Sequence record: PX915677.1
DNA length: 64,000 nucleotides
DNA from: a phage
Reading direction: 5' to 3' (one strand)
Positions 5,774-10,448 of this stretch are shown one piece after another; within the stretch, counting starts at the first letter, position 1; each line of letters begins with the position of its first letter. The notes below the pieces were generated by a model that ran no database searches, had not been told where the DNA came from, and was given only the letters and a program-made list of their open reading frames with translations. Both the position numbers and the translations under genes were made by a program.

Positions 5774-6265
5774 TTACTTACTAGCCTTAATACAGTTGGC
5801 TAAATTAACGTGAACGGTATAAACAGCGTTATTAGCGTTATTATAAACAGTTGTAGCAATCATCGACTCATTGATCGGGCCATAACTCACTAGATTGGTT
5901 ACAGCTTTAACGTCTCCGTAACGTTGTACAGTGCCAAATGTCACCATATCCGCATCGTTATCGGTACGCTTAAGCACCAAATCATTGTTAGGCTGATTAT
6001 CTAACGTTTTAGATTGAAAGAGAACGCCATCATTAGTAACGTTGCTAAATTTCATCTTTAGCACGATATTATTGCTGTCACTATCCGCACCGTTGCAAAT
6101 CATCCAACCCTTATTGATGGAATTAGAGAAGACACTAGCCGCATCAGTTGCAGGAGCAGGACTAGCGATAGCCTTATCAGAAAGAGATGTGACCAGTGCA
6201 CTAACACCGATCGCGGCAATCAGTGCATAACTTGCCAGATTAACTACCTGCATTGCTTTAGCCAT
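5774..6265 (-). CDS. Secreted protein with Sec-type signal peptide (163 aa)
   Basis: ORF track; AAGGAA RBS; N-terminus MAKAMQVVNLASYALIAAIGVSALVTSLSDKAIA then polar mature region. Confidence 0.6.
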   Translation of the reverse strand: MAKAMQVVNLASYALIAAIGVSALVTSLSDKAIASPAPATDAASVFSNSINKGWMICNGADSDSNNIVLKMKFSNVTNDGVLFQSKTLDNQPNNDLVLKRTDNDADMVTFGTVQRYGDVKAVTNLVSYGPINESMIATTVYNNANNAVYTVHVNLANCIKASK

Positions 6266-6303
6266 TTCGTTATTCCTTAGATAGATTCAATCAACTGTCA
6301 TCA

Positions 6304-6331
6304 ACTATATAATAAAGGAAAAGACTGTCAA
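6304..6331 (-). promoter_or_regulatory. Sigma70-like promoter for the 6265-4559 operon (-35 TTGACA, 16-bp spacer, -10 TATAGT)
   Basis: Minus-strand TTGACA = plus 6326-6331; TATAGT = plus 6304-6309; about 35 nt upstream of start codon at 6265. Confidence 0.4.
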
Positions 6332-6439
6332 CCATCTATTTTCTAACTTTCTTGCATCCTACTGAAAACTAAAGGAATTTAATTTGCTAAACTTTCCATA
6401 CTCAGAGAATCAGCTTACTTCTTATTGTTACTTTATAAC

Positions 6440-6900
6440 ACTACGGGTAACAGACCAACAGACCAGGACAAACGGGGATACAACAACCGCAGGACAGACC
6501 ACGGGGAAACATAGCAAGATAGTGCGGTAATAATATACCACTTAAATAATTGTATAACTCAAACATCAAAGACGTTCGTACTTCGTACTCACAAAGGCAC
6601 GCTGAAAAAGGAAAGTAATAAAAGAATAATAACATACAACCATTATCCACTTAATTAATACATATATCATTATTGCACTCATAATCATTACTATTGAAAC
6701 TATTTACACTCAAACTATGGGGAGCTGTGACCATCATTAATGGCATTATTAGTATGCTAATTAGTTGGCCTGTACAGTGCTAGCCTTTCTCTCACTCTTT
6801 AAAGGGGAACTAAATAAACGGGTAGGTAATGTATTGGGTAGTATACACGGGGAAAGAATAACGGGGAGTAGGCACGGGGAAAGGTGGAACGTTGAAAGGG
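6440..6900. repeat. Short direct repeats in control region: ACGGGGA (5 copies) and CAGACCA (3 copies)
   Basis: Read directly near 6448-6510 and 6845-6885. Confidence 0.4.
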
Positions 6901-7033
6901 AAGGTAAAGGCATTGCCAATAACCCTTTTTTAAATGAGGACTCCCCCTTTTTGAGAAACACGCGGCGAGCGGCTAGCCCCACTCGGTCAAATCAGAATTT
7001 TAAACTCTTATATATAAGGTTGAAAGAGAACTT

Positions 7034-7198
7034 ATGTGGAAAATTAAGTTAATCATTAAGCAATTCAAATGTGATCATGAGTACTATCGGATACGCAAAG
7101 CTTACGGGGATGAAAGAGTTCACACCCTTTATAAGTCCACTTGGAGATGTAGTAAATGTGGTAAGCTTAAACACAGCACATGGATGGACAGGCCTTAA
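7034..7198 (+). CDS. Small zinc-ribbon-like protein (54 aa), below ORF-track size cutoff
   Basis: ATG 7034, stop TAA 7196-7198; MWKIKLIIKQFKCDHEYYRIRKAYGDERVHTLYKSTWRCSKCGKLKHSTWMDRP; C-x-H and C-x2-C pairs. Confidence 0.3.
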   Translation: MWKIKLIIKQFKCDHEYYRIRKAYGDERVHTLYKSTWRCSKCGKLKHSTWMDRP

Positions 7199-7385
7199 CG
7201 TGACATAGCCTTTATGGGGGTGCCTTAATGTGAAGTAGTCATCAAAGATGACGTCCCCTTTATGTCTTAACTTTATCAGAGGGATGTATGACAGAAGATG
7301 AATACGGTAGCTTCTCTGAAGAAGACTACGAAAATGAATACAGGTATTCTCACGGGTGTTAATGTGAGGTGGCCTTTACGGGTAG
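7193..7385 (+). promoter_or_regulatory. Three copies of a ~30-bp element, CCTTAA(C/T)GTGA..T.G followed in copies a and c by GCCTTTA(T/C)GGG
   Basis: Copies at 7193-7220, 7223-7238, 7357-7385; located just upstream of the first plus-strand genes. Confidence 0.35.
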
Positions 7386-7430
7386 GTCTTATGATGTGCC
7401 CTCTATACTCTTATTCAGAGGAGAAGAATT

Positions 7431-7685
7431 ATGAATTTAGTATTAGACTTTTTATCAGAGATGGTGCCTCGGTTTAGAACGGAGACATACGCTTTCGTGG
7501 TCAACAGTGACTCTGAAGAAGGGATGGAAGCTACATGCTTAGGTCGACTTGTTGATTTAGATGATGAAACAGATTTCGATATTACAATTGATGTGAGTAG
7601 CTTAGGTTGGCTCTTCTTCAGAGCATTCCGCACTTACAAAGTAGAAACATACAAAGATTATAGCAAGGGAGAGACAGATGAATAA
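7431..7685 (+). CDS. Hypothetical acidic protein (84 aa)
   Basis: ORF track; AGGAGAAG RBS; Asp/Glu-rich. Confidence 0.55.
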   Translation: MNLVLDFLSEMVPRFRTETYAFVVNSDSEEGMEATCLGRLVDLDDETDFDITIDVSSLGWLFFRAFRTYKVETYKDYSKGETDE

Positions 7686-8310
7686 TTTAATCAAAGCGAT
7701 GGACCTTAACGAGTATAATTCACAGCTGTGTCGCTCTGGTTGTAGCTTACAGCATTTAGAGACTATGGGAAATGTTTCAGGATTGGCTGTACAAGATTTA
7801 TATAGTGGAAGTATTCTTAAACCAACTATTACGGAGAAGAAAGATATGATGAGTTTAGTAGAACAATACCGTGGACTTCAAGTCGGTACTATTGGTGATA
7901 AATATGAGAACTACTACAAAGATCGCTCAAAAGTACTTGAAGAAGTTGCACGGGCTAAGCCTTCTACTCTGGAGGTAGTTGAATATGAATCTACTAAACA
8001 TGATCACCTCCCTGACTACGCTCGTGCAATGATTGAGATGATTGAAGAAGCTGAATATGAAATGCTCCATGATTACATTACCTCCAAAGACGAATGGCAT
8101 CGTGATGTTCGAATCGAAGAAGATGGTACAGAAACTATTACGTGGATTCACAAGAGTGAGTTAGTAGACGACGCACTGCGAGACTACGAAAAATTTTTGG
8201 TCGACGGCTCTATTCTTTTAGAGGAAGAGAAGGGTGCAGAACTTCCGTGGGAAGGTGAGACGATTGCTCTAGGTAAGATGTTTAACCTGTCCGTTGGTGA
8301 TTGTAAGTAA
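7678..8310 (+). CDS. Hypothetical acidic protein (210 aa)
   Basis: ORF track; AAGGGAGAG RBS. Confidence 0.6.
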   Translation: MNNLIKAMDLNEYNSQLCRSGCSLQHLETMGNVSGLAVQDLYSGSILKPTITEKKDMMSLVEQYRGLQVGTIGDKYENYYKDRSKVLEEVARAKPSTLEVVEYESTKHDHLPDYARAMIEMIEEAEYEMLHDYITSKDEWHRDVRIEEDGTETITWIHKSELVDDALRDYEKFLVDGSILLEEEKGAELPWEGETIALGKMFNLSVGDCK

Positions 8311-8366: not shown

Positions 8367-8837
8367 ATGTTTGGAGAAAACGGAGAACTCACGCCTGCAC
8401 AGGTAGCTGAGATTACAGGAAGATTACCCGGAGTAACGGAAGAACTTGAAGGCCGTGGTATGAACCCAAGCAATGGGAAGTTTCAAAAGGGAAATAAATT
8501 CGGACGACCCAGAGGTAGTAGAGGTAAACTGACACAATTAATGTTGGACCGTGTTGCTGCAAGTCATTTGTCTCCTGATGAAGTGTTAATTCAAATTTAC
8601 GAAGATCCTAATATTCCACCTGATCTTAGATTCAAGGCTGCATCAAAAGTTGCAGATCTGGTATATCCTAAGGCGGCCTCTGTTGAAGTTAAGATTGAGG
8701 AAGAGAATGTAATCAACGAAGAATCATTGAATGCACAAATCAAGGACTTCTTGACTGGAGCACTTGGTATCGACGTTATGCCTCCAGAAGATAACTCTGA
8801 GGACGCTGAAAAGGGGGAGGAAGCGGACGAGAGTTAA
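8367..8837 (+). CDS. Candidate terminase small subunit (156 aa)
   Basis: Position immediately upstream of terminase large subunit; basic central segment, acidic C-terminus; call by position only. Confidence 0.4.
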   Translation: MFGENGELTPAQVAEITGRLPGVTEELEGRGMNPSNGKFQKGNKFGRPRGSRGKLTQLMLDRVAASHLSPDEVLIQIYEDPNIPPDLRFKAASKVADLVYPKAASVEVKIEEENVINEESLNAQIKDFLTGALGIDVMPPEDNSEDAEKGEEADES

Positions 8838-8906: not shown

Positions 8907-10448
8907 ATGTCATTAGATAAACAAATTTATGAAGCTCTAACTGGTAACAATCTTAGTGTAGATGAAAAGAAAGCACTATTGAATATGTTGAAAGAGCGTG
9001 ACCAATGGAGGAAGTATAATAAGATTTTGTCTTTCAAGGCGTATGACTTCCAAAAGAAATTTTATGCAGCAGGATTGAAGCATCGCTTTAGATTCTTGTG
9101 TGCAGCGAACCGTGTTGGTAAATCTTATAGCGAGGCATACGAGTTTGCTTGTCATGTCACAGGTCGCTACCCAACTTGGTGGACAGGATATAAATTTAAA
9201 AGACCTATCTTAGCATGGGCAGTTGGTATTACAGGGGATTCCACAAGGAAAGTATTGCAAAAGGAATTGTTTGGTACACCTATCGGAAAGGATACAAACT
9301 TATTGGGGACAGGTGTCATTCCTCGTGATGCTATCGTCATTGACACGATAGAACGAGATGGTAACAAACTTCAAATCGTACAAATCAAACATCAAAACGA
9401 AAGAGGGGAGTTTGACGGTTTAAGTACATTAGAATTCCGTTCAACCCAACAGGGTGAACACACATTGATGGGTGCAACAGTTGACTACATTTGGTTAGAC
9501 GAAGAAGATCCATACGAGTCTATGGCTATATTCGCACAGTGCGTCACACGTACACTCACAACTAAAGGTCTAGTTACAATTACAGCTACACCAGAGAACG
9601 GTTTAACTGAACTGGTAGATAAATTTATGAAAGGTGAAGGGGATGAGAACACAGGTTCTCTATATTTCCAGAATGCTTCTTGGTGGGATGCTCATGCAGA
9701 CCTAGGTGGACATATCACTGACCAAGATATAAAAGATATGACTGAAGGTATTCCAGCGTGGCAGTTAGAGATGCGTTCGAAAGGTATGCCATTGTTAGGA
9801 AGTGGTTTGATTTATGATGTATCGGATGACACAATTAAATGTGAACCATTCGAAATTCCTGATACGTGGAAACGTGTCTGTGCAATTGATATTGGTATTG
9901 ATCACCCAACTGCTGCTGTTTGGACAGCTTACGACGCAAACACGGATACTATCTATGTTTACGACTCATATAAAGAAGGTGGCTTTACTCCAGTGTATCA
10001 TGCTCCAGCTATTAATGGTCGTGGTCAGTGGATTCCTGTCATCCTGCCGCACGATGCGGACAATATTGAGAAAGGTAGTGGCTCATCTGTTGCTCAATTC
10101 TATAAGAATGCAGGAGTTAACGTACAGAGTGAGACCTTCTACAACAAAATTGGAATGGATGGTAAAAAGAACTTCTTTGTAGAACCGGGAATCACAGATA
10201 TCCGAGAAAGAATGATGAGTGGACGCTTTAAAATCTTTAACACAGCCACTAATGCTAAGCTATTCGAAGAGAAAGCTAGATATCACCGTAAGGTTGGTAA
10301 GATTATTAAAGAACATGATGACTTAATGGATGCAATGCGCTATTCAGCGTGCTCTGTTACACATCGTGGTCGCTCTAAGCATGACGTTAGCTACGGAAGT
10401 GCTTCTCTGTATGAGGCAAACGTAAGCAGATGGAATCAGAGCTACTAA
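8907..10448 (+). CDS. Terminase large subunit (513 aa)
   Basis: P-loop-like NRVGKS, acidic Walker-B-like IWLDEED, C-terminal nuclease-like region (CAIDIGIDHPT); directly precedes portal. Confidence 0.8.
   Translation: MSLDKQIYEALTGNNLSVDEKKALLNMLKERDQWRKYNKILSFKAYDFQKKFYAAGLKHRFRFLCAANRVGKSYSEAYEFACHVTGRYPTWWTGYKFKRPILAWAVGITGDSTRKVLQKELFGTPIGKDTNLLGTGVIPRDAIVIDTIERDGNKLQIVQIKHQNERGEFDGLSTLEFRSTQQGEHTLMGATVDYIWLDEEDPYESMAIFAQCVTRTLTTKGLVTITATPENGLTELVDKFMKGEGDENTGSLYFQNASWWDAHADLGGHITDQDIKDMTEGIPAWQLEMRSKGMPLLGSGLIYDVSDDTIKCEPFEIPDTWKRVCAIDIGIDHPTAAVWTAYDANTDTIYVYDSYKEGGFTPVYHAPAINGRGQWIPVILPHDADNIEKGSGSSVAQFYKNAGVNVQSETFYNKIGMDGKKNFFVEPGITDIRERMMSGRFKIFNTATNAKLFEEKARYHRKVGKIIKEHDDLMDAMRYSACSVTHRGRSKHDVSYGSASLYEANVSRWNQSY

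Follow-up and report, generated by a model that had tools for sequence, protein, structure and literature searches.

Direct terminal repeats (DTR) of 193 bp have been mapped experimentally on the linear genome of the podophage phiEco32, and repeats of the same length are likewise described for its relatives SU10, Paul and YF01. The hallmark of the SU10 repeat is the element CCCTTTTTTA, which recurs after 10 nt and lies 21 nt from the end of the repeat, and DTR positions ~130-170 are described as highly conserved in the literature on this family. For the genome ends of T7, Dunn and Studier reportedly described in 1983 two arrays of CCTAAAG-type heptamers, SRL and SRR, for which, to our knowledge, no function has been proven. 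In other phages, terminase sites are built of repeated binding elements for the small terminase, as in cosQ-cosN-cosB of lambda with R1-R3 and in pacL and pacR of SPP1. The locus considered here is the region 6440-7385 of a 64,000-nucleotide stretch of phage DNA (record PX915677.1), referred to below as the window, which an earlier note had read from the letters alone as a control region between divergent early operons. According to our analysis, this region instead holds the physical genome termini, with a phiEco32-type DTR at 6782-6974, and the repeats noticed there belong to three arrays of a short heptamer, all on the same strand, which lie before (array R), within (array D) and after (array L) the DTR.

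The joined genome ends

To judge from its sequence, the window represents the genome of a Kuravirus, i.e. a phiEco32-like podophage, in a permuted assembly. The region 6200-7500 is matched by 98 phage records, all from Kuravirus-like phages of Escherichia or Shigella (MN03, SU10, phiEco32, NJ01, 172-1 and others), and the identity to phiEco32 is ~90% across the terminal region. The junction or end regions of 19 relatives were compared, and 15 genomes were tabulated and aligned. The 193 bp at 6782-6974 align end to end and unbroken with both terminal copies of phiEco32 (1-193 and 77362-77554), the boundaries are identical to those of the mapped repeat, and the boundary contexts are conserved in the 15 genomes. 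The phiEco32 record starts with AGCCTTTCTCTCACTC, with AGCCTTTCTC at the left boundary, and ends with GCGGCGAGCGGCT. The alignment with the phiEco32 termini also places the unique right genome end at 6266-6781 and the unique left genome end from 6975 onwards. Other records independently point to the same bases: the Paul record ends at the equivalent of 6781, the LAMP record starts at that of 6782 and the SU10 record ends at that of 6974, while the feature annotated as “Direct terminal repeat” in 4E8 begins at the homologous GGCC of the left boundary and GAGCGGCT closes both the phiEco32 and the SU10 record at the right boundary. The identification of the DTR and its boundaries by homology can thus be regarded as practically certain.

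The most conserved part of the DTR is a core, CCCTTTTTTA-N10-CCCCCTTTTTGA, at 6923-6954 on the plus strand (conservation 0.89), which ends 20 nt before the end of the repeat. It corresponds to the SU10 hallmark, as CCCTTTTTTA occupies 6923-6932 and is followed after 10 nt by CCCTTTTTGA at 6945-6954, 20 nt ahead of 6974. A scan of IMG/VR with this core returned only phiEco32 itself and one other contig. The window contains a single DTR copy, because the assembly collapsed both terminal copies, and the junction, as judged by this homology, is where the assembly joined the two physical genome ends through the repeat. The two early operons accordingly appear to lie at opposite ends of the linear virion genome; since the region contains the genome termini, the “divergent operons” would be neighbours only where the ends are joined, in concatemers or in a circularised assembly. 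Of these features, the DTR and its conserved core have already been described for phiEco32-like phages, and so has the early promoter discussed below.

Both boundaries of the DTR carry the identical heptamer GCT/AGCC, in which the slash marks the inferred cut: 6779-6785 at the left boundary, with the cut between 6781 and 6782 based on the record ends and starts of relatives, and 6972-6978 at the right boundary, with the cut between 6974 and 6975 based on the phiEco32 and SU10 record ends. The GCTAGC core is palindromic, the right site forms the 8-bp palindrome GGCTAGCC, and most of the 15 relatives keep a CTAG core at the two boundaries. GCT/AGCC is a possible terminase nick site, and the shared, partly palindromic heptamer suggests that a single nicking specificity acts on one strand at one boundary and on the other strand 193 bp away. 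The distance between the homologous boundaries is 193 bp in 11 of the 15 genomes. In NC-B, the annotated 194-bp terminal repeat occupies 1183-1376 (locus L020), and the homologous boundaries are found at 1127 and 1376, ~250 bp apart; either the repeat of the clade to which this phage belongs (clade C, see below) is longer than annotated, or the left cut site has moved.

Three co-oriented heptamer arrays

Five direct repeats of ACGGGGA had been reported by the earlier note, and they are located at 6472, 6501, 6847, 6861 and 6874. A further copy is found at 7104, and the whole window contains seven, as opposed to 2.9 expected. ACGGGGA is one variant of a broader same-strand heptamer, A[CT]GGG[GT]A, the core of which, A[CT]GGG[GT], occurs in 6440-7390 at 12 sites on the plus strand and at none on the minus strand (0.57 expected, Poisson P ~1.5e-12). 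The best 951-bp stretch elsewhere in the window contains four such sites. By array, the core is present three times in R, four times in D, where one variant is added, and four times in L.

Array R (6443-6507, plus strand) belongs to the unique right end of the genome, is placed ~280-340 bp ahead of the DTR and consists of ACGGGTA at 6443 and ACGGGGA at 6472 and 6501, the heptamers being 28-29 bp apart, together with the three CAGACCA repeats that had also been reported, at 6451, 6459 and 6495. CAGACCA is common on its own, with 19 sites across the window, and is notable only as a local triplet in array R. One further heptamer, ATGGGGA at 6717, is located in the spacer between array R and the DTR. 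Array D (6818-6880, plus strand; DTR positions 37-99) comprises ACGGGTA at 6818, TGGGTA at 6835 and ACGGGGA at 6847, 6861 and 6874 and is composed of two 27-bp units with heptamers 13-14 bp apart. Array L (7104-7384, plus strand), ~130-410 bp after the DTR, combines one heptamer inside the gene CDS1 (7104) with ~30-bp modules at 7192-7387. These modules, TTAAYGTGA-N4-GCCTTTAYGGGK, are found at 7192-7221, 7222-7267 and 7354-7387 and share the sequence TTAAYGTGA-N4-GCCTTTAYGGG, with TTAAYGTGA at 7195, 7225 and 7359 and CCTTTAY at 7209, 7257 and 7373; the heptamers lie at 7214, 7352 and 7378. Three related copies of a ~30-bp element are thus present as previously noted, the second being split by a hairpin insert; however, they do not lie upstream of the first plus-strand gene but downstream of CDS1 (7034-7198). 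They occupy the spacers between small open reading frames (ORFs), and their number differs among the relatives.

Conservation of the motifs in relatives, which the earlier note had proposed as a check, is observed: each of the 15 tabulated genomes, among them several members of Kuravirus and the Nieuwekanaalvirus EP335, carries co-oriented arrays D and L, and array R occurs at the same relative position in 14 of them. Bas93 is the exception, with degenerate ACGGGAA copies only in place of array R. Hits of the motif on the minus strand number 0-1 in these genomes. Beyond the table, the ATGGGT variant is found in the left-end fragment of the Suseptimavirus EK010, which shows arrays D and L only, and in 101114BS3, a phage labelled as Kuravirus, which has all three arrays. 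Measured against the window in the alignment of the 15 genomes, motif positions are conserved at 0.91 and the inter-motif positions within the arrays at 0.74, a value for the motifs that none of 5000 random placements reached. A 2.8-kb non-coding junction in a more distant phage, Salmonella phage 7-11 (Grimontviridae), shows no comparable array, which is uninformative, the record being one without terminal repeats.

The preferred variant of the motif shifts together in arrays R, D and L, clade by clade. Clade A, with ACGGGGA, contains the window, phiEco32, FH3, Bas91, 1-6af, SGF2, MN03, 172-1, NJ01 and XT32, as well as Paul (array R only). Clade B, with CGGGG[ACGT] and a wider spacing of ~30 bp, contains EP335, 4E8 and Bas89, and clade C, with ATGGGT[AGT], contains TH42, Bas86, NC-B, 101114BS3 and EK010; in array L, the variant ATGGGT[GTA] is found in TH42, Bas86, 101114BS3 and EK010. 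CAGACCA is part of array R in clade A, and in the other clades most genomes retain one copy ahead of a heptamer. In MN03 and NJ01, array R is kept although the adjacent promoter DNA has been replaced, and a scan finds no strong promoter beside array R in these two genomes; therefore, the arrays travel with the terminal repeat and not with promoters. The family literature covered here, which does not extend to the primary phiEco32 papers (Savalia 2008, Pavlova 2012), makes no mention of the three arrays or of the heptamer common to the two boundaries. The arrays thus appear to be undescribed, but a genome-end architecture of the T7 type is of a known kind.

Several further observations concern the DNA within and beside the arrays. 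The insert in the second ~30-bp module is a 15-bp hairpin, GTCATC-AAA-GATGAC (7238-7252, plus strand), which is unique in the window. It is absent from this site in phiEco32 and is found in other modules in SGF2, XT32 (with the loop inverted), Bas93 and Bas89, so that its behaviour, as far as sequence comparison can tell, resembles that of a tiny mobile or recombining palindrome. The RNA structure of the region of the ~30-bp elements is not significant (z = -1.37), and neither Rfam families nor tRNAs predicted by ARAGORN were found in the whole window. A hairpin of the terminator or pause type in the DTR, in which GGGGAGT...ACTCCCC encloses AAAGGG...CCCTTT ahead of a T-run, was rejected, because the DTR folds no better than shuffled sequences (z +1.65 for RNA, +1.31 for DNA); the pairing does appear in the minimum-energy fold, and its partners are lost in phiEco32 and in clades B and C. 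Likewise, a “terminator” on the minus strand at 6504-6487 needs G-T pairs, is not conserved outside clade A and was discarded. In clades B and C, array R closes with AAACGGGTA, after which, ~15 bp past the array, comes TATAATGTA[AT], directed toward the DTR, which combines a perfect sigma-70 -10 hexamer with an AATGTA core like that of gp36 promoters; in clade A, a similar AAACGGGTAGG-TAATGTAT module is placed inside the DTR instead. The TATAATGTA-type module, which recalls phiOR of T7, could be a promoter reading across the concatemer junction.

Candidate functions of the arrays

That the arrays are functional is, in our judgement, well supported, and the repeats taken as binding sites by the earlier note are non-random, conserved and very probably recognised by a protein. 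As to their purpose, our tentative preference, to which we would give a little less than an even chance, is that they are cis signals by which the junction is recognised during packaging or end processing. In replicative concatemers, an oligomeric phage protein, for which the small terminase is the likeliest candidate, would bind multiple weak, co-oriented heptamers and thereby label the junction together with its polarity; a small terminase that works as an oligomer would fit such a set of weak sites in one orientation. Next, GCT/AGCC would be nicked at both DTR boundaries, on opposite strands, by the large terminase, perhaps together with an HNH partner. In the T7 model, strand-displacement synthesis duplicates the terminal repeat, and in the same way such synthesis would copy the DTR here, leaving a repeat at both ends of each packaged genome. 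The position of the inward promoter, ~670 bp from the right end and comparable to A1-A3 of T7, suggests by analogy that the right end enters the cell first. We infer both the identity of the binding protein and the packaging or end-processing purpose.

The putative small terminase, as the candidate reader of the arrays, is a protein of 156 aa encoded at 8367-8837 on the plus strand, immediately upstream of the large terminase (8907-10448, PHROG 2). The assignment is made because of the literature on its YF01 homologue, which was assigned as a PaP3-like TerS by profile comparison (PMC9965538). The protein of the window yielded only a weak, sub-threshold match to DUF5681 and no PDB match by sequence. 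Compared with the proteins of the window (clade A) and of Bas89 (clade B), the counterpart in Bas86 (clade C) shows the changes N33E, N36T and Q40T, which adjoin the basic stretch GNKFGRPRGSRGK; with one sequence per clade and a single evolutionary event, this co-variation of terminase and motif may be taken as a weak hint. It is conceivable, though we hold it with less assurance than the packaging role as such, that R, D and L form a clade-specific genome-end code, which is read by the small terminase or another phage protein, determines the site and the direction of concatemer cutting and packaging, and thereby sets the packaging compatibility among the lineages of the Gordonclarkvirinae. 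If this is true, this phage group would be a tractable system for settling the role of the long-known but unexplained terminal heptamer arrays of the T7 type.

Several points weigh against the packaging reading. The putative small terminases are 91-99% identical across the clades, so that a change of specificity is not evident, and concerted variation can come from gene conversion among the arrays without a shared reader. GCTAGCC is not rare, with seven sites in the window as opposed to 4.9 expected. The ends of this phage have been placed by homology alone, and in clade C the spacing between the homologous boundaries is 249-280 bp (Bas86 and TH42), as opposed to the repeat of 194 bp annotated in NC-B; given these distances, the left cut site may not be universal. 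Finally, the analogy with T7 would back the architecture and not the function.

If the arrays instead served transcription control, a regulator of the phage or of the host would act through the heptamers on the early promoters of the termini, with TAATGTATT or the TTAATGTGA elements as alternative promoters for gp36, the phage sigma factor. A strong sigma-70 early promoter is indeed predicted at the left edge of the region, on the minus strand (TTGACA-N16-TATAGT, 6331-6304), and each of the arrays R and D is situated 100-190 bp upstream of a promoter, or putative promoter, that reads inward. The TAATGTATT variant pointed out by the earlier note is present at 6827-6835 (plus strand) and matches the gp36 consensus tAATGTAtA at eight of nine positions, with the AATGTA core intact, and TATAATGTA[AT] comes after array R in clades B and C. 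However, the motif keeps one absolute orientation, so that its orientation is opposite for the two promoters, array R is retained in MN03 and NJ01 although the scan shows no strong promoter there, and array D, being within the DTR, is duplicated at the far end, where no promoter follows. The TAATGTATT site is polymorphic, with TAATGTAT in the window, FH3, Bas91, 1-6af, SGF2 and XT32 and TAATGAAT in phiEco32, MN03, 172-1, NJ01 and Bas93, and the six mapped gp36 promoters of phiEco32 are elsewhere, upstream of genes 6, 13, 26, 40, 58 and 68; at most, TAATGTATT may be a weak, dispensable promoter and not a core feature. The ~30-bp elements carry AATGTG or AACGTG without the AATGTA core, the scan found no sigma-70-like sites in 7190-7390, and they were rejected as promoters on both grounds. 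We consider transcription control unlikely, and the alternative promoters that the earlier note had offered besides regulator-binding iterons are not supported; the arrays track the DTR and not the promoters. A replication origin is less likely still. In such an origin, heptamer iterons would flank an AT-rich unwinding element with a DnaA-like box, and the AT-rich spacer between array R and the DTR (6511-6781, GC 0.30-0.32) does contain conserved non-coding blocks, the near DnaA-box TTATCCACT was confirmed at 6643-6651 as an 8/9 match, and the cumulative GC skew has its minimum at ~6700. The skew switch is, however, equally explained by the change in transcription direction and by the genome ends. 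A DnaA box is the 9-mer TTATNCACA, conserved and usually present in several copies, as opposed to the single TTATCCACT with its last base wrong; the relatives have TCATCCACT, CTTTCCACT or TAATCCACT at this site and keep only TCCACT. The unit of 7 bp with an irregular spacing of 13-30 bp, which varies between clades, differs from iterons of 17-22 bp, no initiator gene is adjacent and the neighbouring genes are without an initiator-like family, and neither a third array (L) nor an array inside the DTR would be expected of an origin.

Only a slim chance is given to signals on the leading DNA end that act in genome entry or end protection, e.g. a pause or stop during ejection that lasts until the early promoter is taken up by the host RNA polymerase, or binding sites of a protein that protects the end. 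The arrays are strictly co-oriented and extend over the outermost ~550 bp of the right end, in front of the inward promoter at ~670 bp, a geometry as in T7 with A1-A3 at 498-750 bp. Against this, the reading is purely analogical, no candidate protein is known for it, and arrays D and L are also present at the other end in the same absolute, hence opposite relative, orientation. Least probable of all is that the arrays are without function and arose as by-products when slippage, duplication and gene conversion acted on terminal DNA that is prone to recombination. The number and spacing of the modules do vary between relatives, and array D is visibly a 27-bp tandem duplication; nevertheless, conservation is significantly higher at the motif bases than in the spacers between them, three genera keep the arrays with a strict strand bias, and T7 provides an independent analogue.

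Flanking features and comparison with known systems

The gene nearest to the right genome end in the virion, as deduced from the DTR mapping, is the first gene of the leftward early operon (5774-6265, minus strand), taken from the ORF list. It encodes a protein of 163 aa (PHROG 21410/36409, unknown function), whose homologues are hypothetical proteins at the same place in the relatives. The predicted promoter at 6331-6304, which reads inward (leftward) ~670 bp from the right physical end, matches the sigma-70 consensus at 11 of 12 positions and has the -35 and -10 hexamers, the spacing (16 bp, within the usual 16-18 bp) and the position upstream of early genes that are typical of a sigma-70 early promoter. 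It is also annotated as a promoter in phage 4E8, and the early promoter upstream of CDS125 in SU10 is nearly identical to it (PMC4281155, Table S2). The stretch 6384-7052 was treated as non-coding, because indels between the relatives are not multiples of three, and the small ORFs in it were rejected as coding for the same reason. Within the spacer, two non-coding blocks, 6517-6550 (GCGGTAATAATATACCACTTAAATAAT) and 6641-6723 (ATCCACTTAATTAATACATATATCATTATTGCACTCATAAT...AAACTATGGGGA), are conserved at 0.86-0.88 in the 15 genomes, as opposed to 0.61-0.64 in the neighbouring stretches. They share a 13-bp direct repeat, CCACTTAA(A/T)TAAT, at 6538 and 6647 and include the near-invariant ATACATA-N-ATCAT...CACTCAT...AAACTATGGGG.

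On the other side of the DTR, the unique left end begins with a block of 46 bp, AGCCCCACTCGGTCAAATCAGAATTTTAAACTCTTATATATAAGG (6975-7020, plus strand), whose conservation of 0.93 is the highest of the whole region. Its equivalent in SU10 has been called a “potential sigma-70 promoter”, and the consensus promoter scan did not pick up this block. It may be a weak sigma-70 promoter from which CDS1 is read; otherwise, it would be a cis site of another kind. Together with the two spacer blocks, it could serve transcription control, an origin or genome entry and protection alike. Just past the DTR, at the equivalent of window 6995-7015, 172-1 (L011, 1123-1200) and NJ01 (L012, 1159-1240) carry an insertion of ~50 bp, which duplicates the ATTTTAAAC...TATATA block around the palindrome AAACAGATATATACATCT...AAATCTGT. 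CDS1 (7034-7198, plus strand) is the first gene of the left end and encodes a Cys/His-rich, zinc-ribbon-like protein of 54 aa (PHROG 7696, unknown function), for which no Pfam family was found above the cutoff. Two divergent alleles of CDS1 exist among close relatives (MWKIKLIIKQFKCDHEYY... and MNLIKVFRRMKCKHNYY...), and both retain RKAYGDE, whose codons hold an ACGGGGA heptamer (7104 in the window). Further downstream, the 210-aa protein encoded at 7678-8310 carries the family-wide annotation “ABC transporter” (PHROG 12176) without Pfam support here, and this name looks propagated.

For the genome map, these results mean that an apparent control region with divergent promoters is corrected to a pair of joined genome ends, which bears on the annotation, the choice of the start coordinate and the engineering of coliphages that are candidates for therapy. 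Exact candidate cut sites are supplied, GCT/AGCC at 6781/6782 and at 6974/6975, along with a small group of candidate packaging signals in cis, which lend themselves to mutation or to exchange between lineages. In addition, T7-like heptamer arrays are now found in a second, unrelated podophage family, which relies on the host RNA polymerase. If the arrays are terminase recognition sites, they would point to a general solution for marking the junctions of short DTRs.

Compared with the closest relatives, phiEco32, SU10, Paul and YF01 (Kuravirus, Gordonclarkvirinae), the DTR of this phage is homologous in sequence, has the same length of 193 bp and the same boundaries, carries the same CCCTTTTTTA-N10 core near the right boundary and is flanked by the same early promoter; unlike in their records, only one DTR copy is present here, owing to the permuted assembly. 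The layout resembles that of T7 and T3 in the short DTR and in heptamers confined to one strand, which occur both within the repeat and in arrays to its left and right. In the T7 sequence, we located 17 heptamers of the form C[CAT]TAA[ACG]G within 1-420, all on the plus strand, four of them inside the 160-bp terminal repeat and 13 just inside it, i.e. inward of it, and five more just ahead of the right terminal repeat. As in T7, with A1-A3 at 498-750 bp from the leading end, an inward early promoter for the host polymerase is present, here at ~670 bp. The motif itself, however, is unrelated (A[CT]GGG[GT]A as opposed to CCTAAAG), the copies are fewer, array L is interleaved with small ORFs, and this phage is without a phage RNA polymerase and hence without a counterpart of the phiOR/CJ pause mechanism of the T7 RNA polymerase. 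With cos of lambda and pac of SPP1, the junction would share a tripartite organisation in which repeated short sites lie on both sides of the cleavage, as would fit an oligomeric small terminase; in contrast to these systems, the ends here are blunt direct repeats and not cohesive ends or headful cuts, the sites measure 7 bp and binding to them is predicted. The clustered direct repeats beside an AT-rich segment are also reminiscent of the iterons of plasmid and phage origins, but their unit is far shorter, their spacing is irregular, there is no initiator gene next to them, and the arrays both straddle the terminal repeat and sit within it.

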